From Fibrobacterota bacterium (GTDB lineage: Bacteria; Fibrobacterota; Fibrobacteria; UBA11236): DNA of 64,000 nucleotides. Made by a program: the position numbers and the translations under genes. The DNA lies in NCBI GenBank assembly GCA_947482115.1, contig CANKII010000001.1, positions 577,840 through 641,839 of the forward strand, written 5' to 3'. Of this stretch, positions 3,635-39,474 are shown in pieces (positions within the stretch are counted from its first letter, which is position 1; every line of letters starts with the position of its first letter). The notes below the pieces were generated by a model, which searched no databases, was not told the DNA's origin, and saw only the letters and a program-made list of their open reading frames with translations.

Positions 3635-4525
3635 CTAAGAGGGCGTTAAAACGCCATTGTCTTGCTTGAAAAAAGCCTGCTGTCGCGCCAAATGCGCCTT
3701 TTCGAATTCCTGTGCATCTTTCAATTCCTCTTCGGTCAAAACACCGGGTTCACCCGTCACTTCCAGAGCGGCTAGCATGGCTTTTGCCATCTCCAAAAAA
3801 CCTTCTTCGAATCCATTCTCAGGCAACGCGCGAATCTCACTCAACGACATGGCATGGCTTCGCAAGGAATCGAGATAAGCGGCACGTTGTTCTTCGTTGA
3901 GGCGGAGAATTTCCACCAGTCTTTCATGGTCCGGAGTCAAAGGAATGGAGCCATGTTGGAGAAAAGCTTCACGGGTCCTGCGCTGCGCCGAACCCACCAC
4001 CTTCCGTTCACCAAAAGCCAGTTCCGCCCGCGATGTGGATGCAAAACACGGCAGGGTGGATTGTTGGGTTATGGATTTTTTTGTTGAGGCGGACAGTCGG
4101 GGTAGCGCGGTCCCTGAGCCTGTCGAAGGGTGCGCCCCGACAACCGATAGACCAAATCCATTCAATGCCGCTGCCAACGCCCATCCGATCCGCTCATGCG
4201 AAACCGCCAGCGTCGAACACCATGCAGCCTCATCGCGTCGGGCAATCAGGGAATAAGTCAACTCTTCGGCATGCAATACCGCGCGCCCACCGGTGGGTCG
4301 CAACACAAAATCCCAACCGCGTTCTTGCAAGGCCGCCCTATCAAATTCTTCCGAAGGTTTCTGGAAATAGCCAAGGCTCACACACCAGGGTTCCCAACCG
4401 TAAAATCGCACCGTTGGCGGAGAGCGCTTCTCTTCCACCGCTTTCAGAACGGCTGCATCCACCGCCATGTTGAATGCTCCGCGATGTTTACCCGTGAATA
4501 AAATGCGCCACGGTTTTGCGTTCAT
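3635..4525 (-). CDS. Lipoate-protein ligase / octanoyltransferase family protein (BPL/LPL catalytic domain)
   Basis: 296 aa. The N-terminus (FTGKHRGAFNMAVDAAVLKAVEE...RFYGWEPWCVSLGYFQ) is typical of the LplA/LipM family. It carries an in-frame copy of hairpin element A encoding HPSTGSGTALPRL. Confidence 0.65.
   Translation of the reverse strand: MNAKPWRILFTGKHRGAFNMAVDAAVLKAVEEKRSPPTVRFYGWEPWCVSLGYFQKPSEEFDRAALQERGWDFVLRPTGGRAVLHAEELTYSLIARRDEAAWCSTLAVSHERIGWALAAALNGFGLSVVGAHPSTGSGTALPRLSASTKKSITQQSTLPCFASTSRAELAFGERKVVGSAQRRTREAFLQHGSIPLTPDHERLVEILRLNEEQRAAYLDSLRSHAMSLSEIRALPENGFEEGFLEMAKAMLAALEVTGEPGVLTEEELKDAQEFEKAHLARQQAFFKQDNGVLTPS
4096..4141. repeat. Hairpin element, type-1 core copy A (GGTCCCTGAGCCTGTCGAAGGG at 4109..4130) with imperfect flanking inverted repeats (gtcggggtagcgcg / tgcgccccgac)
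   Basis: Read directly. It lies inside the lipoate ligase CDS, in frame. Confidence 0.7.
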
Positions 4526-6404: not shown

Positions 6405-7312
6405 GCCAAATCCTCCGGGTTCTCCACCGGTGTAATCTTCAAATCGCGGGAAATACCGCGAGCCAGTCCCATCAATACTTTTCCTGCGCCCACTTCAAGT
6501 CCTTCGACCACGCCCAGAGACATGGCTTGTTGAATCGATTCCACCCAGCGCACAGGAGAAGTGAGCTGTCGCAGCAGTCCGGTTCTCAACGTTTCCGGAT
6601 CACTTTCCGCTGCTGCATCCACATTGGTAATGACGGGAACCTTGGCACGAAACAGAGTCACGGCACCCAATCCTTTTCGCAAACCTTCCACGGCGAATTC
6701 CATCAACGGAGAATGGAAAGCGCCGCTCACCGGTAAACGAACCACTTTCTTCGCACCCATTTCGGCGCACAATTTTTCTGCAGCTTCGACTCCAGCGCTT
6801 TCTCCCGAAATAACAATTTGCGAAGGACTGTTGAAATTTGCCGCCACGACAATCCCTGATGCGGACGCTGCTTTCAGGGCTTCTTCCAGTTTCTCACGTT
6901 CCAAACCGAGAATGGCGGACATGGCTCCGGGTCTTGCTTCACCGGCTTTGGACATCAGCTCGCCGCGCAAACGCACGAGTCTCAATCCGTCGGCAAAAGA
7001 GAAAACACCCGCAGCGCAAAGCGCAGAATATTCTCCGAGGGAATGTCCGGCCACATAATTGAACTCCACGCCGCGTTCGCGAACCCATTCCATCGCCATC
7101 ATGGACACGGTGAACAAAGCGGGCTGGGTGTTTTCCGTGGCGGTCAGTTTTTCTTCAGGTCCATTCCACAGAATGTCGGACAAATCAAAACCCAACACCG
7201 AGTTGGCTTCATCGAGAATTTTTTTAGCTCCGGCATGGGACTCGGAAAGTTTTTTTCCCATTCCGAGATATTGGGAACCTTGACCGGGGAAAAGGAGAAT
7301 GCGATTGCTCAT
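6401..7312 (-). CDS. fabD: Malonyl-CoA:ACP transacylase
   Basis: GHSLGEYSAL active-site motif; 303 aa. Its start overlaps the fabH end region. Confidence 0.9.
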   Translation of the reverse strand: MSNRILLFPGQGSQYLGMGKKLSESHAGAKKILDEANSVLGFDLSDILWNGPEEKLTATENTQPALFTVSMMAMEWVRERGVEFNYVAGHSLGEYSALCAAGVFSFADGLRLVRLRGELMSKAGEARPGAMSAILGLEREKLEEALKAASASGIVVAANFNSPSQIVISGESAGVEAAEKLCAEMGAKKVVRLPVSGAFHSPLMEFAVEGLRKGLGAVTLFRAKVPVITNVDAAAESDPETLRTGLLRQLTSPVRWVESIQQAMSLGVVEGLEVGAGKVLMGLARGISRDLKITPVENPEDLA

Positions 7313-7332: not shown

Positions 7333-8283
7333 TCACCATCTTACCAAATTACAACCCCAGGACATCCCGCCTCCCACCGCGGCCAATGCCACCAGCATTC
7401 CCGGCTTCAATCGCCCATCGCGTTCGGCTTCATAAAGCGCCAGCGGAATGGAGGCGGACGATGTGTTGCCATAGCGATTCACATTGATCATAACCTTCTC
7501 TTCAGGAAGATCGAGCTTCTCGGCAATGGCTGTCAGAATGCGAATGTTGGCCTGATGCATGACGAGTAAATCGACATCCTTGGGCAGAAGATTTTCCAAG
7601 GCGAGCGTATCCTTCACCACTTTGGACACTTCGGAAACCGCCAGCTTGAACACCTGCTTGCCATCCATGCGCATGGTGGCTTTGTCGGAAAGAATATTGT
7701 CCAGATAAAGAATTCCGGCCTGCCCGCCGTCGCTGCGCAACAAGGAGCGAATCACGCCGCGATCTTTCGGACCTTTGCTGATCAAGGCCGCAGCTCCCGC
7801 ATCGCCGAAGAGAATGCAGGTGTTGCGATCCGTCCAATCCACCACGCGGGACAATACTTCCGCACCGATGACCAGCACGTTGTCGCATTGACCGGAGTCG
7901 ATCAATAAGGATGCGAGATTGACTCCGTACACAAATCCCGCACAGGCGGCCGTAATGTCGAAGGCGAAGGCGTTCTTCGCGCCGATCTTTTCCTGAATGA
8001 AACACGCTGTGGCGGGAAATTGTTTGTCCGGAACTACCGAACCGGCGATGATGGCGCCGACTTGTTCGGGTTTGATGCCCGCCTTTTCCAAGGCACTTAA
8101 AGCCGCAGCCGCTCCGAGATCGGAAGCATGCAGACCACTGTCCTTGGGAAGAATATGCCGTTCTTTAATGCCGGTGCGGGTGGTAATCCACTCGTCGGAA
8201 GTTTCCACCATGCGCTCGAGTTCGGCGTTGGTGAGAATATTTTCCGGAACGCAAATCCCGAGGCCGCGGATAATCGCGCCCAT
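7333..8283 (-). CDS. fabH: 3-oxoacyl-[ACP] synthase III
   Basis: FabH-like sequence with the active-site Cys in AACAGF. The track ORF extends to 8457, but that 58-aa extension is low-complexity and overlaps plsX. The ATG at 8283 (MGAIIRGLGICVPEN) overlaps the plsX stop as TGATG and gives a typical ~316-aa FabH. Confidence 0.85.
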   Translation of the reverse strand: MGAIIRGLGICVPENILTNAELERMVETSDEWITTRTGIKERHILPKDSGLHASDLGAAAALSALEKAGIKPEQVGAIIAGSVVPDKQFPATACFIQEKIGAKNAFAFDITAACAGFVYGVNLASLLIDSGQCDNVLVIGAEVLSRVVDWTDRNTCILFGDAGAAALISKGPKDRGVIRSLLRSDGGQAGILYLDNILSDKATMRMDGKQVFKLAVSEVSKVVKDTLALENLLPKDVDLLVMHQANIRILTAIAEKLDLPEEKVMINVNRYGNTSSASIPLALYEAERDGRLKPGMLVALAAVGGGMSWGCNLVRW

Positions 8284-9464: not shown

Positions 9465-10052
9465 TTACGACTCCGATTTTCCCCGCTTTTCCCCGGAAAC
9501 TTTCCCTTTTGGGGCTGGCTTCGCAGGAATTTCTTTCAAGGCCTTCAGCATGGCCCAACGGGGATCAACCCGATCCGTCTTCTTCTTTTCTTTGATTACC
9601 GGGGCCGGTCGGCCACATTTCACGCAGTTATTTTGCGCATCCAAGTCCGGAAGAGGGTGCAAATTATAGTTCAAAATGACCTGTTCCGCAATGATATGGT
9701 CGAGCGGAATATCGAAAACATCGGGGCCCAGCTTAACTTGGTAATCCTCAATGCCTTGGTCCTCGTCTTCGAGCCAATCGAGGCCTTTTTCCTTGCGTTT
9801 TCCAATCAAAAGATTGAATTGGGTCTCGAAAGGTTGGTCGAGTTTGTCGAGGCAACGGCCACAATCCAGGCTCAAAATCCCCCGGACTTCACCCCGCGCC
9901 AGATAGATCTCTTCAGCCAAAGGGGTCACATCCACATGCGCATGGACTTTTCCAATGGCTCCGGATTCCAAAAGCTCGGGTAACTCAGAAGCATTGGCTT
10001 CCAAGTCCAGCTCTACAGGTTCTTTACCAAGGGTGTCAAATGCGATATTCAC
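9465..10052 (-). CDS. yceD: YceD/DUF177 family protein (large-subunit accumulation protein), probable GTG start
   Basis: The C-terminal half of the ORF 9465..10358 has the DUF177 CxxC pattern (LDCGRCL...CVKCG) and the conserved position upstream of rpmF-plsX. The first ~100 aa of the ORF are low-complexity and overlap a plus-strand membrane-protein gene, so a GTG start at 10052 (VNIAFDTLGKEP) is proposed. The exact start is uncertain. Confidence 0.5.
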   Translation of the reverse strand: MNIAFDTLGKEPVELDLEANASELPELLESGAIGKVHAHVDVTPLAEEIYLARGEVRGILSLDCGRCLDKLDQPFETQFNLLIGKRKEKGLDWLEDEDQGIEDYQVKLGPDVFDIPLDHIIAEQVILNYNLHPLPDLDAQNNCVKCGRPAPVIKEKKKTDRVDPRWAMLKALKEIPAKPAPKGKVSGEKRGKSES

Positions 10053-10555: not shown

Positions 10556-11706
10556 TGTTTCACCCCCTCTGTTTGCTTTTCACCTTCGCCAGCTTCATTT
10601 ATCTCCTGCTGGATATTCAATTGATTCGTGGCTTGCGTAAACTGAAGAAATCATCTGCAAACAAACCAAATCAATCCCCATCCATCACTGTTCTGATAGC
10701 CGCCCGCAACGAGGAAAAGAATCTCCCCCGTGTATTAAACGTCCTGTTGGCCCAGGACTATCCCGGAGATAAAACGCAAATCGTAGTGATCAATGATCGA
10801 TCTGAAGACGGCACGGAATCGGTGCTTCGCCGATACACCAATGAGAATCCCGGCAAGGTGGAATTTCTCAACATTCAAACTATTCCACCCAATATGAGTC
10901 CCAAGAAACATGCGCTGTTCAAAGGGCTCGAAATTGCAAAAGGCGAATGGATTGCGGTCACCGATGCCGATTGCATCATGGGCCCACAATGGCTTTCTTC
11001 AATGAGCAACGAGTTCTCCGAAGACACAGGAATGGTGTTGGGGTTTACAGGCTACGAAGAATCCCAGAAAGGTTTCAGCATGGGGCAAGGCGCGCAGGCA
11101 TTGGAGTTCGTGTCCTACGGCGTCGTCTCATCCGCCTTGATTGGTTTGGGATTTCCTGTCATTGCCAATGCCAACAACCTCGCCTATCGCCGCAAAGCCT
11201 TCAACGATGCTTCCGCATTGCGCCAGCACGGACACATAGTCAGCGGTGATGACGACTTTGTACTTCAGGAAATTCATGCCACGGGGAAATGGGCAATTCG
11301 CTATTCCTTAAATCCGCAAACTTTGATGCGCACCGCGCTTCCGGATTCCTGGGAACATTTCTGGGAACAGCGAAAACGTTGGGCCAGCAAATGCATGATG
11401 TACCGTCCACGGCAAATCGCATTTCTCGCTATGATTTTTGCGTTTTACGCCGCAGTTCCAATACTGCTGATCGCGGGTTTTTGGAATACGCAATGGGCTT
11501 GGCTCGGTTTGGGAGTTTTCCTTGCAAAAACCGTGGGAGATTTTGCGGTGACGAAACAGGGACTCAAAATTTTTGGACTCGGGAAATTGCTTCGGTTCTT
11601 CCCCCACACCGCTTTACTTCACATCCCGCTCATCGTCTGCGCCGTATTAGCCGGAACTTTTGGGGGATTTACATGGAAGGGACAAAAACTCTCCCGTCGA
11701 GCCTAG
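10555..11706 (+). CDS. Family-2 glycosyltransferase, membrane-integrated processive type (DxD and QxxRW motifs)
   Basis: N-terminal TM helix, then ITVLIAARNEEKNLPRVLN...QIVVINDRSEDGT (GT-A fold), DAD (VTDADCIM), Q-R-K-R-W (EQRKRWASK) and C-terminal TM helices. The start is taken at the internal ATG at 10555 rather than the track start at 10492. Confidence 0.75.
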   Translation: MFHPLCLLFTFASFIYLLLDIQLIRGLRKLKKSSANKPNQSPSITVLIAARNEEKNLPRVLNVLLAQDYPGDKTQIVVINDRSEDGTESVLRRYTNENPGKVEFLNIQTIPPNMSPKKHALFKGLEIAKGEWIAVTDADCIMGPQWLSSMSNEFSEDTGMVLGFTGYEESQKGFSMGQGAQALEFVSYGVVSSALIGLGFPVIANANNLAYRRKAFNDASALRQHGHIVSGDDDFVLQEIHATGKWAIRYSLNPQTLMRTALPDSWEHFWEQRKRWASKCMMYRPRQIAFLAMIFAFYAAVPILLIAGFWNTQWAWLGLGVFLAKTVGDFAVTKQGLKIFGLGKLLRFFPHTALLHIPLIVCAVLAGTFGGFTWKGQKLSRRA

Positions 11707-13562
11707 TAGTCGTCAACACCGGGCTCCAGCACTTCCTTGCGCTTCTTCCCGGTTTCCTCTTCGGTGGTATCTTCAACTGCAGCATCCGTTGAAGTGGATC
11801 CGCCTTCTGAAACAACCTTGCTGGAATCCCCGTTTGCCTTGGTGAATAACGAATCCATATCCGCTTTGGTGAAATTTGCGTAGACCATCTTGTCTCCGGC
11901 AATGCGGCCGTAAACCGTATTATGGTATTTCTTGTTCAAGGTGTAATAAGCAACTTTGGCCGAATCCAGACTGCCGTGTACCGGCGGCAGTTCATGCGCC
12001 TGACCCTCACGCAAAAAGGCCATGACGAAAAGCGCCTTTGGCGCAAATTGCGTCCGGGGATATTGCCCGTAAACCATCCGATAGGCGGGAACAACCTTTT
12101 TGGAAACATCCTCCCCGCCGAAACGCAGTTTTTCCGCTTCGAGAAAAAGGGTGTGCGCCCTGTCTTCGTCGGTTTGCACCGTCGGTTTTAAACCCAGATT
12201 TTTCTCCGCCTGTTTGGCCCATTCGGTATTGGGGAATTTTTCCAGCACATAGCGATAAAGCGAATCCCCCACGGGCTTGTTCTTCTTGAATTCCTCCTGA
12301 ATATAGGCCCGGGCATAGGCGGCGCGGATGGTATGGGTACTGTCGAGTGTGTTGCTGGCGACAATCTGGTTCAATCGTGCCAGCGCACTATCGACCTGCG
12401 AGAGATTGAAGAGGAACAATTCCGCAATCATGAAACTCGAGTAATGGGGTTGAACAGAATCCGGCTTGGCCTTCCGGAGTTCGGCAATGCGCGACAACGC
12501 ACGGGATTTCTCCGCGGCCAGAGCGCCGAACTCAAAACTTTGACCCACGGCTGCGGAGGAATCGAAGTAAACCTTGGCGGAGTCCTCCTGACGGAGCACT
12601 TCGAAATAATGATCCCCCAAGCGATAAAAGGCCTCGGCCGCAGGCGCCCCCCGGGGCTTCATGCGTGGAACCTGCCGGTAAAGATTTTCCGCTGCCTTCC
12701 AATCCCCCAAACCTTCCCTTCCCCGCCCCATCAACACCTTGATGTCCGGACGATAAGGCCCATACCCTTTCTGCTTGTATAGATGCTTCGCTTCATCAAT
12801 CCCGTCGGCAAACTGTTTCTCCCGGTATTTGCAAAGCAGCGCCAGCCGTTCATTGCGATACTTGAATTTGTCGGCGTAGATGTTGTGTTCCGGGGCCAGT
12901 GCATGTCCCCGAGCCCGCTCCCATTGGCCCAGATTAAACGAGAGCTTTGCAGCTTCCCAATGCACATCCGCCCGGACATCGTCGCTCAGGCCTTTCTGCT
13001 CCAAAAACTTTTCAAAATAAGTCAAACCCGCAGAAGCGGAATCCCCTTCCATTTCCATATGCGCCGCAAGCAACAGGGCTTCACGCAAAATTTCACCCGA
13101 GGGGTTTTTCTTCAGGACGATTTGCACCGCATCCCGTGCCTTGAGCATTTTTCCATCGAGATAAAAAGCCTTGGCGCGATGAATCTCCGCCAAAGGATTT
13201 TGCGGAGCCGTCGGATAATAACGCGCCAATTCCTCGTACTTCTCCACGGCCATTCCATAATCTTCCATCAGCAAATAACTCTCCCCCATCAGGAAAAGAG
13301 CCTTGGGCCCATAATCGGTGCGCTCCGGATAAAGCTCCAGCAACTTGGAACATTTGGCTATCGCGCGTTCAAACTTCAGCTTTTCTTCCGGCGTCACAAC
13401 CACCGAATCTTCCGGATCCTTGGCGAGGCGTTTTTCACGCATGCGAATGGCTTGATCGTAAGCTTTCTGCGCGTTGAAAAATGTGTTGAAATAAACACAG
13501 CCACCGAGCAGCAGTGACAACAGCATCAGACCGGGGAACAGGATTTTAAATCGGCGCGACAT
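11703..13562 (-). CDS. Tetratricopeptide-repeat lipoprotein (YbgF/BamD-like TPR protein)
   Basis: 619 aa. Signal peptide plus lipobox-like LLGGCVY; many TPR-like helical repeats; an acidic low-complexity C-terminal tail. Confidence 0.6.
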   Translation of the reverse strand: MSRRFKILFPGLMLLSLLLGGCVYFNTFFNAQKAYDQAIRMREKRLAKDPEDSVVVTPEEKLKFERAIAKCSKLLELYPERTDYGPKALFLMGESYLLMEDYGMAVEKYEELARYYPTAPQNPLAEIHRAKAFYLDGKMLKARDAVQIVLKKNPSGEILREALLLAAHMEMEGDSASAGLTYFEKFLEQKGLSDDVRADVHWEAAKLSFNLGQWERARGHALAPEHNIYADKFKYRNERLALLCKYREKQFADGIDEAKHLYKQKGYGPYRPDIKVLMGRGREGLGDWKAAENLYRQVPRMKPRGAPAAEAFYRLGDHYFEVLRQEDSAKVYFDSSAAVGQSFEFGALAAEKSRALSRIAELRKAKPDSVQPHYSSFMIAELFLFNLSQVDSALARLNQIVASNTLDSTHTIRAAYARAYIQEEFKKNKPVGDSLYRYVLEKFPNTEWAKQAEKNLGLKPTVQTDEDRAHTLFLEAEKLRFGGEDVSKKVVPAYRMVYGQYPRTQFAPKALFVMAFLREGQAHELPPVHGSLDSAKVAYYTLNKKYHNTVYGRIAGDKMVYANFTKADMDSLFTKANGDSSKVVSEGGSTSTDAAVEDTTEEETGKKRKEVLEPGVDDY

Positions 13563-13565
13563 TGG

Positions 13566-13613
13566 GAATAGTGTACGAAATTAGACCCGGCCTGTAAGGG
13601 CGACCCGGCGGGT
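13566..13613. repeat. REP-like GC-rich palindrome (ccggcctgtaagggcgaccc-ggc-gggtcgcccttacaggccgg), copy 1
   Basis: Read directly: ~20-bp perfect arms with a 3-nt centre. It lies between the carB stop and the start of the TPR gene. It shares the core GGGCGACCCGGCGGGTCGCCC with the palindrome at 20497. Confidence 0.7.
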
Positions 13614-13618
13614 CGCCC

Positions 13619-16600
13619 TTACAGGCCGGCGTGAAATTCCTGCAAGGAGCGGACTTCGAGTTCCCCGCGTTTCAGGGCGCGAATGGCTTCCAATGCCGCA
13701 CGTGCCGCAGACATGGTTGTCGTATAAGGAATCTGGGCAATGAGCGCAGCTTTACGAATCAAACCATCGTCTTCAATCGCAGCTTGTCCCAAAGGCGTGT
13801 TGATCAGCAAAGCGCATTCCTTGCTCTGAATCAAATCCACGATATGCGGAGAACCTTCGGAAACCTTGTTCAAGGCGCGACAGGAAATGTCGTGTTCACG
13901 CAACACCTTCGCCGTGCCTGAAGTCGCAAGCAATTCAAAGCCGAGTTCCTGTAAACCCTGCGCAATCGGGACAATATTTTTCTTATCGTGATTATTCACG
14001 GAGAGAAATACCTTCCCGTGACTGGGAAGGCTGTTCCCCGCTGCGATTTGCGCCTTGGCAAAGGCTCGTGAAAAATTCGAATCGATGCCCATCACCTCGC
14101 CGGTGGATTTCATCTCGGGGCTTAGCAAGGTATCGACACCGTGGAATTTTGCAAACGGGAATACGCTTTCCTTCACCGTGACATAATTGCCGATGCGGGC
14201 CTCGGTGAATCCCAATTCCTGCAAAGTTTTCCCGAGCATGGCCTTGGTCGCCAACTTGGTCAAAGGAACACCGAGTGTTTTGCTGACGAAAGGAACCGTG
14301 CGGCTGCCGCGTGGATTCACTTCCAGCACATAAACCACATCGTCCTTAATGGCATACTGGACATTCATCAATCCAATCACCTTAAGCTCTTTGGCCATGG
14401 CGATGGTTTGGCGGCGCATTTCTTCCAGTACCGATTCGGTAATGTCCTGCGGCGGCATGATGCAGGCGGAATCTCCGGAGTGAATACCGGCTTCTTCAAT
14501 GTGCTGCATGATTCCCGCCACCACTACGGTTTTCCCGTCGGAGATGGCGTCCACATCCACTTCCATCGCTTGATCGAGGAACTTGTCCACAAGCACAGGC
14601 CGCTCAGAAGAAGCCTCGACTGCAGTGGCCATGTAATGACGCAACTCGTCTTCAGAATACACGATAGCCATCGCACGTCCGCCAAGCACAAAAGAAGGAC
14701 GCAGTAAGACGGGATAGGTCAACCGGGCTGCAACGGCAACCGCTTCTTCGGTGTTCACAGCCAAACCATTGGGCGGTTGCTTGAGACCCAAACGATTGAC
14801 CAGTTCGGAGAACAACTTGCGATCTTCCGCGATGTCGATGGAAGAAGGCGAGGTTCCCAAAATGGGCGCATGAGCGGCCTCCAAAGCTTTCGCCAACTTC
14901 AACGGCGTTTGTCCGCCGAATTGCAGAATGACACCGTAGGGTTTTTCCAACTCGATGATGTTGAGAATATCTTCACGAGTCAACGGTTCGAAATAAAGTT
15001 TGTCCGAGGTATCGTAATCCGTACTTACCGTTTCGGGATTGGAGTTCACCATGATGGATTCGCAATCCTCTTCCTGTAATGCAAAGGACGCCTGACAACA
15101 GGCATAGTCGAACTCGATACCCTGACCGATGCGGTTCGGGCCACCACCAACGATGATCACCTTCTTGCGATTCGTAGGAACCGATTCATTTTCTTCATCG
15201 TACGTCGAATAATGATAAGGCGTGAACGCCTTGAACTCGGCGGCGCAGGTGTCGACCGTCTTGTACACCGGCATGATATTCAGCGCCTTGCGCTGTTGAC
15301 GCACATCCTCTTCCTTGGAACCGGATAAGTACGCCAGTTGCACGTCGGAATAGCCCCATTGCTTCGCTTTCCGCAAAGTTTCTTTGGGTAAAGATTTGAG
15401 CGACTTGCCCTTCAAGTCCGACGCTTCGAAACGAACCAGATCGAGAATGTGATTCAGGAACCACGGATCCATGCGGCACATGCCCTGAACCTTTTCCAGA
15501 CTCCAGCCCAATTCAAAGGCGCGCTTCACGGAGAAAACACGGTTGATGCCGGGATGTTTGAAGTCGAGATTCTTTTCGATTTGATCGTCGGGAATTTCTT
15601 TTTTCCCGTCGGCGCCCAAACCGTAGCGGTCGATTTCCAGCGAGCGCATGGCTTTCTGCAGGGACTCTTTGAAAGTGCGACCGATGGCCATGGCCTCGCC
15701 CACCGACTTCATCTGCGTGCCCAGAACCGATTCCGCCTGCGCAAACTTCTCGAAGGTAAAACGCGGAACCTTGGTCACGACATAATCGATGGTCGGTTCA
15801 AAACAGGCAGGCGTGACGCGGGTGATGTCGTTCTTCAATTCATCCAGCGTATAGCCAACCGCAAGTTTGGCGGCGATTTTGGCAATGGGAAAACCAGTAG
15901 CCTTGGACGCCAATGCCGAACTGCGCGACACACGCGGATTCATCTCAATGATGATCAAGCGGCCGTCTTTGGGATTCACGGCGAATTGCACGTTGGAACC
16001 GCCGGTCTCCACTCCGATTTCACGGATGCAGGCGATGGAGGCATCGCGCATGCGCTGGTATTCCTTGTCCGTCAGCGTTTGCGCCGGAGCCACGGTGATG
16101 GAATCACCGGTGTGAATGCCCATGGCGTCCACGTTTTCAATGGAACAGATGATGACGACATTGTCCTTGCGGTCGCGCATCACTTCCATCTCGAATTCTT
16201 TCCATCCCACCATCGATTCCTCGACGAGGATTTCGGAAATCGGACTCAATGACAAACCACTGCGCGCAATGCGTTCAAATTCTTCTTCGGAGTATGCAAA
16301 GCCTCCGCCTGCTCCACCCATGGTGAAAGCCGGACGGATGACCAACGGCAAACCGATTTCCTTCATGGCGATGCGCGCTTCGTCCATGGTTCGGGCGACA
16401 AAAGACCGCGCTGAATCAATGCCAATTTTCGTCATCGCATCTTTGAACAACTTGCGCGACTCGGCTTTTTTGATGGCTTCCAGATTCGCGCCGATCATTT
16501 CGACGCCGTACTTTTCCAGAATGCCGCGTTCGGCCAGTTCGACGGCCGTGTTCAATCCCGTTTGTCCGCCCAAAGTGGGCAACAAGGCATCGGGTCTTTC

Positions 16601-16840
16601 CTTGGCAATAATCTTCTCGCACATTTCCCACGTAATCGGCTCGATATAGGTCGCATCGGCCATCTGGGGATCGGTCATGATGGTGGCAGGATTCGAGTTG
16701 ATCAGAATGACCTTGTAGCCCTCTTCGCGCAGGGCCTTGCAGGCCTGAGTACCGGAATAATCGAACTCGCAGGCCTGCCCAATGACAATGGGCCCGCTTC
16801 CGATGAGCATGATTTTATGAAGGTCCTGGCGCTTGGGCAT
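13619..16840 (-). CDS. carB: Carbamoyl-phosphate synthase large subunit
   Basis: Two ATP-grasp halves, [21 protein letters not shown] near the N-terminus, and an MGS-like C-terminus. The start is placed at [14 protein letters not shown] (16840), not the track start at 16924. Confidence 0.9.
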
Positions 16841-16999
16841 GGATACGGGTCCGTTTGTGAAAAGATGGGAAAAAACCTGTGAAAAGGTAACAACGGCTGC
16901 ACGGTCTACGAATGCCCTGATCAATCCCTTTTGTCTCGGGAAATGCCGAGCGCATGCCTATTTTGAAGGTTGTATATCCAGCCAGAAAGACCTTAAAAG

Positions 17000-17479
17000 A
17001 TGACCGCACAAGAGTGGATTGGCCGCCTAAACCTTGTCCCCCATCCCGAAGGCGGGTTCTACAAGGAAGTTTACCGTTCAAGCTTTCCCGTGGTTCCACC
17101 CAGCGGCAAGGTTACGGGGGCTTGCACTTCCATTTATTACCTGCTTCAGGACAAAGACTTCTCAGGCTTTCATCGGCTTGCCTATCCTGAAATCTGGTAC
17201 TTCCAGGATGGTAACGCTTTGGACGTACATGCCATCGATCCTTCGGGAAAATATTCGGTGACAAGACTGGGTAAAGGCGTTGGAGAACATTTGTCACTGG
17301 TGGTGGAACCGGGTGTCTGGTTCGCGGCAGAACCTCCTGAAAAGAACGGGTTTGCCCTCGTTAGCTGCGCGGTTGCTCCGGCTTTTGACTTCGAATTATT
17401 TGAGATGGGCAAAAAAGAGGAACTGACGAAAAAGTGGCCTCATCATAAGGATATTCTCGAGAAGCTGTGCCGAATCTGA
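17000..17479 (+). CDS. Cupin-fold protein (DUF985-like)
   Basis: 159 aa. LVPHPEGGFYKEVYRS...YYLL resembles the conserved N-terminus of the DUF985 cupin family. Confidence 0.55.
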   Translation: MTAQEWIGRLNLVPHPEGGFYKEVYRSSFPVVPPSGKVTGACTSIYYLLQDKDFSGFHRLAYPEIWYFQDGNALDVHAIDPSGKYSVTRLGKGVGEHLSLVVEPGVWFAAEPPEKNGFALVSCAVAPAFDFELFEMGKKEELTKKWPHHKDILEKLCRI

Positions 17480-17490
17480 AATAGGATCGT

Positions 17491-18513
17491 TTATGGGGAA
17501 GTAAAAATGACCCCGTCATAACCCACCGCGACAAGTTTTCCGGTCCCTGAGCCTGTCGAAGGGCTTGTCCCCGCGACGGAATACAAGACGGATTTGGCAG
17601 CCAACGAATCGTTTGTCCAATGGACGCCATCATCTGAAACCAAAACCGTTCCTTCATAACCCACCGCAATAAATCGTCTGTTGTTCCACGTAATCGAGTT
17701 CAAGACGCCAAACGATCCCCGGGAAGCCCAGGTTACACCGTCCGGAGAAGCCAAAATATCTCCGTTGTTGCTTACAGCAACCAGTTGACTTCCACTCCAT
17801 GCGAGGGAGGAAAGGGCATTCGTGATGCCGGAACTTTGTTCCATCCACGTCACGCCATCTTGTGAAGTGAGAACCGTACCGTAGTAGCCCACTGCAATCA
17901 TCCGCGTTCCACTCCATGCCACGGAATACAAGTCTTCACCCCCTAAAACACCGTCACTTCCACCGTGAACCGGATCCTGCCGTCCCAATACCGGAAGCCG
18001 TTCGGTCCATGTAATTGCATCGGGAGATGTTAGTATGATCCCATCCCAGCCCACTGCCACAAAGAGTCCGGTCCCTGAGCCTGTCGAAGGGCCGGTCCAA
18101 ATAACCGAGTTTAAAATTGCCGATACTCCAGAATTCCGCTCTGTCCACACCACGCCATTCGGCGATGTTAAAACAATGCCGCCAGACCCCACAGCCACTA
18201 ACTGTCCGGGCCCTGAGCCTGTCGAAGGGCCTGTCCAAATCACAGAGTTCAAGGGATTTTCAGTTCCCGAAATTTGCTTTGTCCAGGTTGCTCCATCGGA
18301 CGACGTCAGAATAATTCCACTCGAACCGACGGCCACCCATTGATGATCCGCCCAAGTCACCGAATTCAATGCCTCGGTTGTTCCCGAGACCTGTTGTGTC
18401 CAAGACTTTCCCAAATTCACATTTTCATCATTGCCGGTCGAAGTCCTCATGCAATTCCAGAGAAACATCGGAATGATCAAAAAGGCTCCAATAAAAAGAT
18501 TCTTATTGCGCAT
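17491..18513 (-). CDS. Secreted BNR/Asp-box repeat protein (Ycf48-like beta-propeller)
   Basis: Signal peptide. Six or more S-x-D-G-x-T-W BNR motifs (TSSDGATWT, TSPNGVVWT, TSQDGVTWM, ASPDGVTWA, VSDDGVHWT). Three copies of PSTGSG(T/P)G are encoded by the hairpin-element core. Confidence 0.65.
   Translation of the reverse strand: MRNKNLFIGAFLIIPMFLWNCMRTSTGNDENVNLGKSWTQQVSGTTEALNSVTWADHQWVAVGSSGIILTSSDGATWTKQISGTENPLNSVIWTGPSTGSGPGQLVAVGSGGIVLTSPNGVVWTERNSGVSAILNSVIWTGPSTGSGTGLFVAVGWDGIILTSPDAITWTERLPVLGRQDPVHGGSDGVLGGEDLYSVAWSGTRMIAVGYYGTVLTSQDGVTWMEQSSGITNALSSLAWSGSQLVAVSNNGDILASPDGVTWASRGSFGVLNSITWNNRRFIAVGYEGTVLVSDDGVHWTNDSLAAKSVLYSVAGTSPSTGSGTGKLVAVGYDGVIFTSP
17542..17563. repeat. Hairpin element, type-1 core copy B (GGTCCCTGAGCCTGTCGAAGGG), flanked by gacaag/cttgtc
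   Basis: Read directly; inside the BNR gene, where it encodes PSTGSGT. Confidence 0.7.
18070..18091. repeat. Hairpin element, type-1 core copy C
   Basis: Read directly; inside the BNR gene (PSTGSGTG). Confidence 0.7.
18208..18229. repeat. Hairpin element, type-1 core copy D (GGGCCCTGAGCCTGTCGAAGGG)
   Basis: Read directly; inside the BNR gene, 141 bp from copy C (one protein-repeat period). Confidence 0.7.
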
Positions 18514-20494
18514 GCATCCACTCCGCAGCCTTTGAGCGCATCTCCCGAATCAATTCCGAGTCTTCCAGTAAATCCACGAACCGGAGCAGCCCAAATCCAC
18601 TTTGCCGTGTCCCGTCCAGACTTCCCGCACCGCGACGTTGAAGGTCCATCTCGGCAATGCGGAAACCATCTTCGGTGGACGCAAACTCGCGCAAACGTTC
18701 TTCGGTTTCCTCCGGCCACCCGTTAAGCGGTGCCAACAGAAAGCACCAGGCTTGCGATTGACCACGACCCGTGCGACCGCGCAACTGATGCAATTGCGCC
18801 AGCCCAAATCGATCCGCACTTTCGACCACCATCAGGTTCGCTCCCGGCACATCCACACCTACTTCAATTACAGTCGTAGCCACCAACGCATGGATTTCGC
18901 CCTTGCGGAATGATGACAAAATGCGTTCACGTTCCTGTGATGGGATTCGTCCATGCACGGCTTCAACGCGCCATTTGCCAACATTTCGTAACCGTTTGAC
19001 GGCGGAATCAATTGCTGCAATGCTTTCCGTTTCGTTGTCCATTTTATTCCCCCCCTCAAGAGGGGGGGATAAAGGGGGGGTGATTCTGGGAACAACCCAA
19101 TAAACCTGATTTCCATTTTGGGTTTCCCGAAAAAGAAACTCCAGCATTTCCTTTTCTTTTTCCGCAGGAACGCGTCGGGTTTTTACCGGCAAACGCCCAG
19201 CAGGTTTTTCCGCCAACGTCAACACATCCAAATCGCCATACAATGATTGTGCCAGCGTGCGCGGAATTGGTGTAGCGGAGAGATACAACACATGCGGTTC
19301 AATACCTTTGGCGGACAATGCTGCACGTTGTTCCACACCGAAGCGATGTTGTTCATCGATCAACACCAGCCGCAATTCTTTGAACACCACGCCGGATGAC
19401 AACAGCGAATGCGTGCCGACCACGAAGGGCAAGCTCCCATCCTTCAGTTTTTCAAGAATGCGAGTCCTCTCATCTGCGGGTGTCGAAGCCGACAACAATG
19501 CGGATTCAAAACCCGCTGCTTTCAATACTGCGGCGGTGGAACGGAAATGTTGCTCCACGAGAATTTCCGTGGGTGCCAGCAACACGGCCTGCGCTCCTGC
19601 AGCCATTACACGGATCGCTGCCAGCAAGGCCACGGCTGTTTTTCCCGAACCCACATCGCCGTGCAACAGGCCAAAGAATTGGCCCTGCGTTTCCAATGCG
19701 GTGTGAATGGATTGCAACACTTCTTCCTGACCTTTGGTCAGCGAAAAAGGCAAAGCGGAATGCGCAGCTTGTTCTGTTTCGGGATGCGCAGTGAAGACCC
19801 GACCCCGGTTTAATCGTTCCCGTCGTGCAACTTCGCGCTTCAAACTTAGCGGCCACAACTCACGAACCTTTATTTCACTAAAAGCCGTAGCGACCAAGTC
19901 CAACGACGTAGGCGCATGCAGAATTTTCAACGCTTCAATTTCGGACCGCAGCTGAAGGAAATTTTTCTCGTCCGGTGAAAGCGGATCGGAAAAAGAAAAC
20001 TGCTCCAGTGTTTCCAAAGCCAGTCGCCGCACCAACTTGTGATCGATGCGAGCTTCTTCCATTTCCTCGGTCATGGGATAAACGGGGAGCATGCCGCCGC
20101 GAGGTTCCTGATCCTCGTCAAGCTCCTCCCATTCGGGATGCGCGATTTGAAAGTCGTGGAAATAGGTCACAGGCCCGGCAACAGAGATTCGCTTTCCGGG
20201 TCGCAGGCGCTGTTTGAGAAAGTGGAGGCCGCGAAAGAAAACCAGTTCAATGCCACCCGTTTCATCGCGAACATGAACGACAAGCCTTGTTCCGATGCTG
20301 TCAGCTGATTCGATATGCGCGGGGAAAAAAGCATCCATCCCCTCTTTCAGGGAATCAATGGGAGTAATGCGCGTGCGGTCTACATACCGGCGCGGCAGAT
20401 AATAAACGAGATCGCGTAATGTGAGGAGGCCTGAGGCTTCGAAAGCCTTCAGGCGTTTGGGACCAACCCCGGTTAAGCGGGATAATTCGGACAT
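18503..20494 (-). CDS. recG: ATP-dependent DNA helicase RecG
   Basis: 663 aa. Wedge/OB N-terminal region, Walker A (GDVGSGKT), DEQH box (LIDEQHRFGV) and helicase C domain. It contains an in-frame G/C homopolymer insertion. Confidence 0.85.
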   Translation of the reverse strand: MSELSRLTGVGPKRLKAFEASGLLTLRDLVYYLPRRYVDRTRITPIDSLKEGMDAFFPAHIESADSIGTRLVVHVRDETGGIELVFFRGLHFLKQRLRPGKRISVAGPVTYFHDFQIAHPEWEELDEDQEPRGGMLPVYPMTEEMEEARIDHKLVRRLALETLEQFSFSDPLSPDEKNFLQLRSEIEALKILHAPTSLDLVATAFSEIKVRELWPLSLKREVARRERLNRGRVFTAHPETEQAAHSALPFSLTKGQEEVLQSIHTALETQGQFFGLLHGDVGSGKTAVALLAAIRVMAAGAQAVLLAPTEILVEQHFRSTAAVLKAAGFESALLSASTPADERTRILEKLKDGSLPFVVGTHSLLSSGVVFKELRLVLIDEQHRFGVEQRAALSAKGIEPHVLYLSATPIPRTLAQSLYGDLDVLTLAEKPAGRLPVKTRRVPAEKEKEMLEFLFRETQNGNQVYWVVPRITPPLSPPLEGGNKMDNETESIAAIDSAVKRLRNVGKWRVEAVHGRIPSQERERILSSFRKGEIHALVATTVIEVGVDVPGANLMVVESADRFGLAQLHQLRGRTGRGQSQAWCFLLAPLNGWPEETEERLREFASTEDGFRIAEMDLQRRGAGSLDGTRQSGFGLLRFVDLLEDSELIREMRSKAAEWMHAQ
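19049..19080. repeat. Homopolymer-rich hairpin-forming tract C7-TCAAGA-G7-ATAAA-G7 inside recG
   Basis: Read directly: ccccccctc (19049..19057) is the exact reverse complement of gaggggggg (19060..19068). Encodes PPLSPPLEGG in RecG. Confidence 0.8.
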
Positions 20495-20496
20495 GG

Positions 20497-20535
20497 CCGG
20501 TAGGGGCGACCCGGCGGGTCGCCCCTACCGGCCCC
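20497..20535. repeat. REP-like GC-rich palindrome (ggccggtaggggcgaccc-ggc-gggtcgcccctaccggcc), copy 2
   Basis: Read directly: 18-bp perfect arms. It sits between the rplS stop and the recG start. It has the same core as the 13566 copy, with two compensatory arm differences. Confidence 0.75.
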
Positions 20536-20540
20536 CACGA

Positions 20541-20897
20541 TTAGGCTTCACGTTCTTTGATGCGCGAGGCCTTACCGGTCAAGTCACGCATGTAGAATAT
20601 GCGCGCACGGCGAACCTTGCCGAGGCGGCTCACCTTGATTCCCGCGATGCGCGGTGAATGCAAGGGGAAAATACGTTCGACGGCAACGTTGCTGGACATT
20701 TTACGCACCGTAAAGGTTGCGGAAACTCCGGCACCGCGACGTTGAATCACAACACCCGTGAAAGTTTGCACGCGTTCTTTGCTGCCTTCGATGACCTTGA
20801 AGTCAACGCTGATGGTATCGCCCGCGCGGAATTCCGGAATGTCGGTGCGCTGGGCGGCGTCGTTGTGGATTTTGGCTACTGTAGGATGCATGATCAA
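20541..20897 (-). CDS. rplS: 50S ribosomal protein L19
   Basis: A conserved L19 sequence; lies downstream of trmD. Confidence 0.9.
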
Positions 20898-23440: not shown

Positions 23441-23500
23441 ATCTGGGCAATAAAAAAGGCTGCGTGAGCAGCCTTTTTCTTCAAACATGAAATATCGGGA

Positions 23501-34654: not shown

Positions 34655-37600
34655 ACCGGCGTTAACCACACCAATCTTGATGACAGCCGTTGTATTGCCA
34701 CCGGGGTTTTGCGCGGTGACCGTATAGTTTGTTGCCGGGGAAATCACCGAGGGCGTCCCCTGTATGTAACCCGTGGTTCCATCAAAAGTGATTCCGGTTG
34801 GAAGTGCCGGTAAAATGGAGTAATTCGTCACGATGCCTTGAACGGTGGGAACATTGGGAGGACTGATGGCGATATTGCGGCCATACGTGGGAATATCATC
34901 GATGTATGAAAGCTCGGTGGGAACTCCAACGATGGTAATGTTGATGATGGCTTGTACAGAACCCAACGGGTTGCTCGCTGTCACCGTGTAATCCGTGGCA
35001 AAGGATTGGTGTGTCGTCGGAGTTCCCGTCAGAACACCTGTCAAACTGTCTATAACCAGGCCAGTGGGAGGCGCAGGACTGACGGAATAATGGGTGATGA
35101 AGCCGGTAATCGAGGGAGGATTCGGAGTAATGGCCAGACCAAGGACGTAGGCCGCCGCGTCATCCGCATAGGAGAAATTGGAAGGTATGGCAAATACCCC
35201 GATGTTCACCACCGCTGTATCCGAACCTCCGGAACCGGTTGCAATAACCGAGAAATCGGCAGACAAAGATTGCAGCGTCGGAGTCCCGGAGATGACGCCG
35301 GTAAGAGTGTCCAACGACAAACCGGGTGGGAGCGGGGAAATAAGTGCATAGTGGGTTACATCCCCCCCAGTTGAAATCACGGAATCCGGAGTAATGGCCG
35401 AATCCTTTATATAAGCTGCGGGATTGTGAACGTATGCGATCATGGGGGCTATGAGAACCTGTAAAACACCGGAATCGCTTGTTGCCACACCGGCAATGTT
35501 GGTCACCACGCACTTGTAATAGCCCGAATCCGAACCCTGAACATTGACGAGCGTCAGCGTATCGAGATTGCCAACGCTGTCCACTCCGTTCTTGAGCCAC
35601 TTGTAGAAGAGCGGAGCCGTACCCGATGCAGTCACTCCAAATTTCGCCGTGGCTCCCTGAACAAGAGTCTGACTTACAATGGGCTGGGTGACAATGGACG
35701 CAGGCACATTCAACGACAAGGTCACGCTGTTGCTGGTAGTATCGCCAAGGGGGTTTGTCACAATGACTTTATAGGAGCCGGTATCCGCAGCCTGCACGTT
35801 CACCAAAGTCAGAGTGTCCAATGTGCCGACAGTATCGGTGTTGTTCTTCAACCAGACATAGGTAAGAGTGTCCATGCCCACGGCCATCACACCAAACTTC
35901 ACTGTGGATCCGGCATTCACCATCTGGCTGGCGGGTTGCGAGAGAATCACAGGCGCCAGATTCACAGTCAAAACCCCCGAGTCACTCGTTGCCACACCGG
36001 CAATGTTGGTCACCACGCACTTGTAATAACCCGAGTCCGAACCCTGAACATTGACCAAGGTTAGTGTATCCAGATTTCCAACACTATCCACCCCGTTCTT
36101 GAGCCATTTGTAGGAGAACGGGGCCGTACCCGAAGCCATTACGCCAAATTTCACGGTCGCAGTTTCATTTGCCACCTGGCTGGCGGGCTGCGAGGTCACA
36201 CTGGGAGCCACGTTCAACGCGAGGGTCACGCTTACACTTGACGTATCCCCGGCCACGTTATGAATCAGCACTTTGTACGAACCCGTATCCGCAGCCTGAA
36301 CATTGACCAGCGTCAATGTATCCGAAGAACCCACGGTGTCCGTATTATTCTTCAGCCAGACATAAGTCAACGGAGCCGTGCCCGTCGCCACCACCCCAAA
36401 TGTCGCCGTGGAGCCCGAGTTCACCATCTGGCTGGCGGGTTGCGAAGTAATCACCGGGACAAATTGCACATGCAAGGTGCCCGAATTGCTTGGTGCCACA
36501 CCGGCAACATTGGTGACAAAGCACTGATACGAACCCGAATCCGAGCCTTGAACATTGATCAGAGTCAATGTATCCGAAGAACCCACACTATCGGCGCCGT
36601 TGTGAATCCACTTATACGACAACGGATTGGTGCCTGTAGCCCCGATGCCAAATTTCACCGTGGAACCGGAATTCACCGTTTGAGATACGACCGGCTGGGA
36701 GGTTAGGCTGGGCAATATGTTCAACCCAAGGTTCGCACTAACACTGGAGGTGTCGCCGGCAATATTATGAACGAATACCTGGTAAGAGCCCGTGTCCGAA
36801 GCCTGAAAATTCAATATCGTGAGCGTATCCGTGAAAGCCACCGTGTCCGTATTGTTCTTCAGCCAGACATAAGTCAACGGAGCGGTGCCCGTCGCCACCA
36901 CACCAAATTTCACCGTGGAGCCTGCATTGGCCATCTGACTGGATGTCTGCGAGAGGATCACAGGAAGATAATGCACCACCAACGATCCGGGATTGCTGGG
37001 CGCAACACCTGCGATATTATTGACAAAGCACTGGTACGAACCCGAATCCGAACCCTGAACATTGACAAGGGTCAATGTGTCCAAATTACCCACGCTGTCC
37101 ACCCCGTTCTTCACCCACTTGTAATGAAGCGGAGCCGTACCGGTTGCGATGACACCCAGTTTCACCGTCACACCCGAATTCACGGTTTGGCTGGTGACAG
37201 GCTGCGAAGAAATGTTGGGCGCCACGTTCAGTCCCAGAGTCACGCTGACACTGGAAGTGTCTCCGGCGATGTTATGAACGAACACCCTGTAGGAACCCGT
37301 GTCCGCAGCCTGAAAATTCAATATCGTGAGTGTATCGGTGAAAGCTACCGTGTCCGTATTGTTCTTCAGCCAGACATAAGTCAACGGAGTCGTGCCCGTC
37401 ACCACCACGCCGAATTTGACTGTCGATCCCGCATTGGCCATCTGGCTTGAAGACTGGGACGTAATCACAGGGAGCGCATGCACGATCAAAATGCTGGAAT
37501 CACTCGTGGCAATGCCGGCAACATTCGTGACAATGCATTTGTAAGTGCCTGAATCTGAAAGTTGAACATTCGACAGGGTCAGGGTGTCCTGATTGCCCAC

Positions 37601-39419: not shown

Positions 39420-39441
39420 GGGAATTTGCATCTCCCTAAAA

Positions 39442-39474
39442 AAGCCCGCTCCGACCAGAGCGGGCTTTTTTATT
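39442..39474 (+). terminator. Intrinsic terminator (aagcccgctc-cgacca-gagcgggctt + TTTTTTATT) 52 nt upstream of the cimA ATG; attenuator terminator
   Basis: Read directly: 10-bp GC-rich stem followed by a T-tract. The upstream segment gagcgg (39407..39412) can alternatively pair with ccgctc (39446..39451), which would form an antiterminator. Confidence 0.55.

Follow-up and report, generated by a model that had tools for sequence, protein, structure and literature searches.

The GTAG repetitive extragenic palindromes (REPs) form a superfamily of short, GC-rich palindromes in which the tetramer GTAG stands directly against the stem and the loop is 2-3 nt long (Di Nocera et al. 2013, PMC3733652; Nunvar et al. 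2010, PMC2817692). Such tagged palindromes are found in several phyla, within 20 bp of the ends of upstream open reading frames (ORFs), and stop codons are often provided by their tags; the phyla named for these repeats do not include Fibrobacterota (PMC3733652). Published REP classes comprise about 10 to several hundred copies. In the group-3 REPs, which consist of GTAG, an 8-bp perfect stem and a 3-nt loop, the first G of the loop is essential, and cleavage is lost when tag position 4 is mutated (PMC8266576). Here we describe two palindromes in a 64-kb stretch of DNA, hereafter the window, from an uncultured Fibrobacterota bacterium (assembly GCA_947482115.1, contig CANKII010000001.1, positions 577,840 to 641,839). 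We think it probable that both are members of the GTAG-tagged REP superfamily, a reading that includes as its inferred parts an origin from a REP-associated tyrosine transposase (RAYT) and a role in intercistronic punctuation.

The two elements and their parts, in window coordinates, are as follows.

13587..13629, no strand assigned: REP-type palindrome copy 1, 43 nt, perfect 20-bp stem, 3-nt loop
13587-13593 / 13623-13629: outer stem of copy 1
13594-13597: GTAA of copy 1, with the mirrored TTAC at 13619-13622
13598-13606 / 13610-13618: core stem of copy 1, GGGCGACCC / GGGTCGCCC
13607-13609: loop of copy 1, GGC
20495..20533, no strand assigned: REP-type palindrome copy 2, 39 nt, perfect 18-bp stem, 3-nt loop
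20495-20499 / 20529-20533: outer stem of copy 2
20500-20503: GTAG of copy 2, with CTAC at 20525-20528
20504-20512 / 20516-20524: core stem of copy 2
20513-20515: loop of copy 2, GGC

Copy 1 reads CCGGCCT-GTAA-GGGCGACCC-GGC-GGGTCGCCC-TTAC-AGGCCGG and copy 2 reads GGCCG-GTAG-GGGCGACCC-GGC-GGGTCGCCC-CTAC-CGGCC. A preliminary description of this DNA had already recognized both palindromes, although it placed the first about 20 nt too far to the left (13566-13613) and the second 2 nt off (20497-20535). The common centre that it reported, the 21-mer GGGCGACCC-GGC-GGGTCGCCC, is indeed present in both copies and nowhere else in the window, and these exactly two sites compare with 0.01 expected from shuffled sequence. 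The two arm differences that it listed are also there: T versus G just outside the tag and A versus G at tag position 4, both mirrored exactly in the other arm. The two copies are the longest perfect hairpins of the window, the next being a 15-bp A/T-flanked terminator, and searches of the window with up to three mismatches, for GTAG beside a hairpin of any kind and for every perfect hairpin brought out no sites but these two. As minus-strand RNA, the palindromes alone fold at -44.6 kcal/mol (copy 1) and -42.8 kcal/mol (copy 2); in a 66-nt context the values are -51.8 kcal/mol (z = -8.9) and -46.7 kcal/mol (z = -6.0). Seven contigs, which for the most part derive from different samples, carry the palindrome-bearing sequence with 100% identity, and this rules out an assembly artefact. 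No Rfam family matched at the gathering threshold and nothing relevant appeared at E ≤ 1, the sole match over either palindrome being a generic hairpin over copy 1, far below threshold. A full-text literature search for the exact sequence returned unrelated papers only.

Both copies share several of the traits by which REPs are recognized: they are stem-loop palindromes of 20-50 nt, they are extragenic and close to the 3' end of the upstream ORF, and they carry a stem-adjacent GTAG or close variant, if the GTAA of copy 1 is counted as such. The preliminary description had called the palindromes REP-like without noticing these tags, which stand on both arms (GTAG/CTAC in copy 2, GTAA/TTAC in copy 1) and pair with each other; the term is borne out by them and by the recurrence of the hairpin across phyla, where it flanks or lies inside RAYT-like genes. 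Further likenesses to the GTAG superfamily are the occurrence of sub-variants with complementary stem changes, the position between unidirectional genes, the tag that supplies a stop codon and the presence in deep-branching phyla. The class to which the window copies probably belong is composed of GTAG, a stem beginning GGGC(G) and a 3-nt loop, and the variant traits of the window copies are double paired tags, an outer stem of 5-7 bp and fixed slots. Like REPINs and bacterial interspersed mosaic elements (BIMEs), the window copies are long hairpins of two inverted tag-bearing halves, but their arms are not self-palindromic, the 3-nt loop is the only spacer and there are no alternating arrays, so that they do not qualify as either.

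The same core is found far outside Fibrobacterota. When 185,579 species-representative genomes were scanned for GGGCGACCC-NNN-GGGTCGCCC, at least 120 loci matched, from Chloroflexota, Gemmatimonadota, Planctomycetota, Desulfobacterota, Acidobacteriota, Fibrobacteria, Patescibacteria and others. Among the matches listed, 130 core occurrences have full flanks; in 95 of these GTAG, CTAC or both stand immediately next to the stem (78 one-sided, 17 two-sided), GTAG accounts for 112 of the 260 flanking tetramers, the flanks past the tag are random, and the loop, read from the tag, mostly starts with G. The loci among the matches listed amount to 827 kb, which hold 221 GTAG-tagged perfect hairpins, where shuffled sequence gives 1 and control tetramers give 3-17; the stems of the other GTAG-tagged hairpins in these loci mostly start with GGGC. 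In a metagenome collection that does not include the source organism, the extended form GGCCNGTAR...YTACNGGCC was found on one foreign contig, L130, with two copies; the window organism thus shares the GGCC-N outer stem with others. A scan of viral contigs gave 22 matching contigs, none with a RAYT, which thus gives no sign of phages as main carriers. The core is absent from the supplements of Di Nocera 2013 (PMC3733652).

Some of these loci are worth describing individually. L130 is a low-GC marine-sediment contig with sites at 4465-4501, 7203-7241 and 8004-8029; its two extended copies, (G)GCCTGTAG-GGGCGACCC-GGY..., follow gyrB and a lipoprotein gene, and its third GTAG hairpin, with a GGGCGGGTT stem, lies at the contig end. 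In L034 (Gemmatimonadota, 477-809) five copies are arranged in tandem with a period of 78 bp, each unit containing GTAG-GGGCGACCC-GCC-GGGTCGCCC, and the block resembles the clustered REP blocks described for Thermomicrobium roseum. Several contigs start (L002, L007, L106) or end (L133, L112) inside these palindromes, where short-read metagenome assemblies appear to break.

RAYT-like ORFs are present in seven of the at least 120 core loci. In two of them, L035 and L066, the RAYT-like gene lies between two inverted core copies whose tags face outward; this arrangement is the classical one and is also that of the group-3 REPtrons of S. maltophilia and Marinomonas (Corneloup et al. 2021, PMC8266576); the window copies share with these the GTAG tag, the perfect 8-9 bp stem and the 3-nt loop that starts with G. 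The RAYT-like proteins contain the HUH motif MPNH(L/V/M)HG and the motif WQRNYYE, and they match Pfam Y1_Tnp and, as the best family, NCBIfam NF047646 REP_Tyr_transpos (E 1e-17 to 1e-20), with NF047646 scores of 71 and 62 bits that fall under the equivalog cut-off of 80. In addition to these sub-cut-off scores, the differences from group-3 REPtrons are that no RAYT was seen in the DNA examined from the window organism and that five of the seven RAYT-like genes (L119 394-990, L061 5016-5537, L113 7217-7561, L022 21-479, L030 3754-4350) contain a REP inside the ORF, just after the HUH motif. This internal REP is translated as VGATRRVAPT, LGATRRVAPT, WATHRVAPT or VGAGSEPAPT; in L030 it has the opposite orientation and reads RRGDPMGRPY, and L119 has about three partial tandem copies. 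It is possible that a REP in this position is an autoregulatory feature, or that the position is a preferred insertion site.

Both sites can be examined in relatives of the window organism. Copy 1 lies between carB and a gene for a tetratricopeptide repeat (TPR) protein (slot A), and copy 2 between rplS and recG (slot B). Synteny is conserved at both junctions, which makes the orthologous intergenic regions comparable, and GTAG palindromes are found at slot A in two relatives and at slot B in four.

Slot A, carB|TPR, L137: CGGGCAT-GTAG-GGGCGGGA-TTA..., in which the TAG of the tag is the carB stop
Slot A, carB|TPR, L141: CGGGATTT-GTAG-GGGCGTGG-TCA..., 5 nt past the native stop
Slot B, rplS|recG, L134: AGGCCTT-GTAG-GGGGGAACG...
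Slot B, rplS|recG, L135: GGGACG-GTAG-GGACGCGG-TAA...
Slot B, rplS|recG, L136: identical to window copy 2
Slot B, rplS|recG, L142: GGGTC-GTAG-GGGCGATTC-GC...

The flanking coding DNA of these slot-bearing relatives is 72-88% identical to the window at the nucleotide level, and in every lineage the recG ATG lies 0-9 nt from the hairpin. The preliminary description had named only two copies in the whole genome, together with a lack of structural conservation in relatives, as the outcome that would speak against its view; relatives conserve the structure at both slots. More distant relatives are without the element, slot B of L129 being an 18-nt spacer and slot A of L143 a small unrelated hairpin, and slot B of L127 holds a different 13-bp hairpin with 11 Watson-Crick and two G·U pairs on the sense strand. 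It is background to this pattern that vertical persistence at orthologous sites has been described for REPINs.

An alignment of nine distinct elements, including the two from L130, confirms the covariation far beyond the two copies of the window. Over the basal 17 columns, 99.3% of cells are paired, and 8 of the 17 pairs change on both sides while none changes on one side only; none of 500 shuffles reaches these values, and slid controls pair at 39-50%. Overall, the nine elements contain 164 Watson-Crick pairs and no G·U pairs. The invariant columns, GTA(G/A) and GG(G/A)CG with their mirror images, are the head of the cross-phylum class, and the outer and apical stem sequences vary with complementarity kept. 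The orthologous slots provide a clean natural experiment, in which stems differ at up to a third of their positions and never by a G·U pair or a one-sided change. A remnant of turnover is preserved in slot A of L137: at 9975-9987, immediately 3' of a complete palindrome with a different stem, lies a relic half-REP, GGGTCGCCCCgAC, which agrees at 12 of 13 positions with the right arm and tag of a GTAG-tagged REP of the GGGCGACCC type, as in copy 2. The relic implies that the newer palindrome replaced the left half of an older GGGCGACCC-type REP. L138, a strain of the same species as L137, has an uncompensated G to T change in one tag; both the relic and this change point to processes acting on DNA.

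Our most informative data are the covariation without a single G·U pair and the half-REP left in L137, and they bear on how symmetry is maintained. The lack of G·U pairs and of one-sided intermediates, together with the equal perfection of both DNA strands, argues against purely RNA-level compensatory selection, and palindrome maintenance at the DNA level, or turnover at fixed sites, fits better than selection on RNA only. Arm-to-arm template switching in quasi-palindromes is a known replication phenomenon. The preliminary description had taken the mirrored substitutions as the signature of selection on hairpin structure; the covariation itself stands, whereas selection on an RNA hairpin does not follow from mirrored changes by themselves, and the 164 Watson-Crick pairs without a G·U or one-sided change and the relic in L137 point to symmetry at the DNA level. 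Mirrored substitutions are thus no proof of RNA-structure selection, and the comparison of slots bears on REP persistence by setting turnover or DNA-level symmetrization against RNA selection.

Several observations weigh against membership of the window palindromes in the GTAG superfamily. The canonical tag is one-sided and unpaired, unlike the paired tags on both arms of the window copies, which also depart from the canonical form in their extra 5-7 bp of outer stem, in being perfect palindromes of 39-43 nt, and in the GTAA of copy 1, which lies outside the published tag degeneracy (GYAG/GYRG/GTRG/GTMG). The source genome has two copies in ~82 kb (the window plus ~18 kb of extra flank, L131 and L132), and neither a third copy nor other GTAG hairpins above chance were found in these ~82 kb. 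Searches by tblastn with an E. coli RAYT sequence (against the window and L001-L126) and with four of the RAYT-like proteins (against the window and L001-L143) detected no RAYT in the window or the other Fibrobacterota loci, ~250 kb in all. Only two slots are conserved in position, where a freely dispersing repeat predicts otherwise, and the two slots of one genome, represented on the same contig by L141 and L142, carry different stems. The low density does not exclude REP membership, because published classes range down to ~10 copies. Genome-wide homogenization of stems is rejected as a general rule on account of the two differing stems of the L141/L142 genome.

Alternatively, the palindromes could be regulatory RNA hairpins, conserved in the lineage, non-mobile and selected in place (as terminators that lack a U-tract or depend on a factor, as RNase III sites or as translational insulators), with a likeness to REPs that is incidental or due to ancient ancestry. 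Occupation of both slots in several relatives with flanking genes of only 72-88% nucleotide identity would follow from such a role, as would the strong covariation, the very low density elsewhere, the constant proximity of the recG ATG and the different hairpin with two G·U pairs in slot B of L127. However, a constraint on RNA only should tolerate G·U pairs and one-sided changes, and there are none among the 164 pairs; the invariant GTAG GGGCG on both arms is the exact signature of the cross-phylum, RAYT-associated class; the half-REP of L137 shows replacement, not gradual change; and deeper relatives are without the element at both slots. On balance, we consider this explanation unlikely.

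The perfect two-fold symmetry of the DNA and the invariant half-site GTAGGGGCG would also be expected of double-stranded operators for a dimeric protein, or of cruciform sites with a role in DNA topology. E. coli REP and BIME elements have been reported to bind IHF and gyrase, which counts in favor of this view, as does the mention of roles for REPs in genome structuring (PMC8266576). The free variation of the outer and apical stem with complementarity maintained points instead to a folded hairpin, not to an operator read as sequence, and the elements are located at the 3' ends of genes and over a stop codon, not in promoter regions; such a role is very improbable. That two unrelated GC-rich hairpins merely resemble each other, or that the assembly is at fault, has in its favor that there are only two copies and that palindromes of this kind break assemblies in the five contigs named above. 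This notion is effectively refuted by the shuffle expectation of 0.01 for the common 21-mer, by the seven identical contigs and by the recurrence of the same architecture in relatives and across phyla, and its probability is negligible.

The genes around the two palindromes are all on the minus strand, and each copy lies between co-directional genes.

13619..16840, minus: carB, carbamoyl-phosphate synthase large chain, 1073 aa (Pfam, L121 gene call, PDB alignment), upstream of copy 1
13619..13621, minus: carB stop codon TAA, which is the TAA of the GTAA tag, inside the stem
11703..13562, minus: gene for a Fibrobacterota-specific TPR/YfiO-like protein, 619 aa, ATG 24 nt downstream of copy 1
20541..20891, minus: rplS, ribosomal protein L19, 116 aa, stop codon 7 nt upstream of copy 2
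18503..20494, minus: recG, 663 aa, ATG abutting the 3' base of copy 2 (0-nt spacer)

The placement of both copies downstream of minus-strand genes, carB and rplS, agrees with the preliminary description. The minus-strand carB mRNA includes copy 1, which overlaps the last 11 nt of carB including the stop (minus strand ...GAA TTT CAC GCC GGC CTG TAA), one arm encoding the last two residues (Gly-Leu) and the stop. The alignment to E. coli CarB ends at ...EFHA, and copy 1 therefore contributes only a non-conserved tail of CarB. The recG start is confirmed by the N-terminus MSEL(S/T)RL, which is conserved in relatives. All named homologues of RecG and of the TPR protein come from metagenome-assembled genomes of Fibrobacterota.

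Intrinsic terminators share with the window copies a stable GC-rich hairpin just past a stop codon. They differ in their U-tract: the 3' tails GTCTAATTTC (copy 1) and ATGTCCGAAT (copy 2) are not proper U-tracts, in line with the preliminary description, the former being weakly T-rich and flagged by a permissive terminator scan. Neither copy is thus a GC-rich hairpin directly followed by a U-tract, and the start of the downstream gene comes 0-24 nt after the hairpin; the genuine terminators of the window are A/T-flanked. Canonical bidirectional terminators, with an A-tract, a GC stem and a T-tract, are found at 23453-23478 and 39437-39472 of the window and at 6858-6887 of L142, and the position of the terminator after rpsP is conserved in a relative. 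The presence of these A/T-flanked terminators indicates that the organism uses ordinary terminators, unlike the two REP sites. A structured terminator may be a secondary function of the palindromes.

If the palindromes are REPs, a plausible history can be proposed for them. The elements would have originated from RAYT-type processing of single-stranded DNA. In the most economical model, REPs would already have stood in the slots of a common ancestor, and the long occupation of the slots would have gone along with turnover ever since. Each incoming copy would be palindromic and so preserve symmetry, or template switching from arm to arm would do so, rather than stepwise compensation in RNA. Copy 1, with its GTAA, is probably no longer a RAYT substrate, because mutation of tag position 4 abolishes cleavage in the published group-3 REPs (PMC8266576).

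We hypothesize that the hairpins, at about -43 to -45 kcal/mol, serve as intercistronic punctuation once transcribed into the carB and rplS mRNAs, and that they would block 3' to 5' decay of the upstream cistron and lower expression of the distal gene. This is the classical role of REPs in operons, where upstream mRNA is shielded from 3' exonucleases and expression of the distal gene is reduced. At carB, where the stop codon is inside the stem, the hairpin might hinder access to the termination codon or translation termination nearby, a mechanism of interference with termination that Liang and Deutscher reportedly described for REPs near stop codons. At recG, where the ATG abuts the stem, the hairpin would mask the initiation region. 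A strongly expressed upstream gene would thereby be uncoupled from a downstream gene with weak expression, and RNase III might contribute by cleaving the perfect stem of 18-20 bp, which is a plausible substrate.

A stronger version of this proposal is that, in this clade, the GTAG palindromes at carB|TPR and rplS|recG are domesticated and positionally fixed intercistronic elements, no longer mobile and kept as perfect DNA palindromes by template switching or site-specific replacement, which work as signals for RNA processing or insulation and also supply a stop codon and mask a start codon. We offer this tentatively, as a possibility more doubtful than REP membership as such. If true, REPs would have been turned into conserved operon punctuation across genus- or family-level divergence. 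Membership of the window palindromes in the GTAG superfamily would extend it to an uncultured Fibrobacterota lineage, and one REP head, GTAGGGGC(G), is common to very distant phyla along with RAYT-like genes. For annotation, the palindromes account for the end of carB within a hairpin and for the lack of space for a ribosome-binding site in front of recG.

Several smaller observations concern the same regions. Inside a lipoate-protein ligase-like gene, CCTGTAGGGGCGA is found in L141 (19123-19150) and L137 (19458-19470) and is absent from the window orthologue; the L141 site extends to 23 of 28 matches with the rplS|recG REP of that genome. It could represent a degenerate REP within the gene, or the likeness could be a coincidence of coding. 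Between the hairpin of copy 1 and the start of the TPR gene lies the motif GATTTCGTA(C/A)A (13572-13581, minus strand), which is conserved in three lineages and, in part, in L143, where no REP is present; in L137, L141 and L143 it is upstream of the TPR gene, and it may be a promoter or 5' untranslated region element of that gene. Within recG, antisense to it (19564-19672, plus strand), Rfam reports Ysr141, a Yersinia small RNA, at 28.5 bits versus a gathering threshold of 196, a match that is almost certainly spurious. Finally, two small hairpins at 36300-36319 and 37059-37078 of the window, 760 bp apart, share the 8-bp stem ACATTGAC/GTCAATGT and differ in their loops; they are unrelated to the GTAG class.

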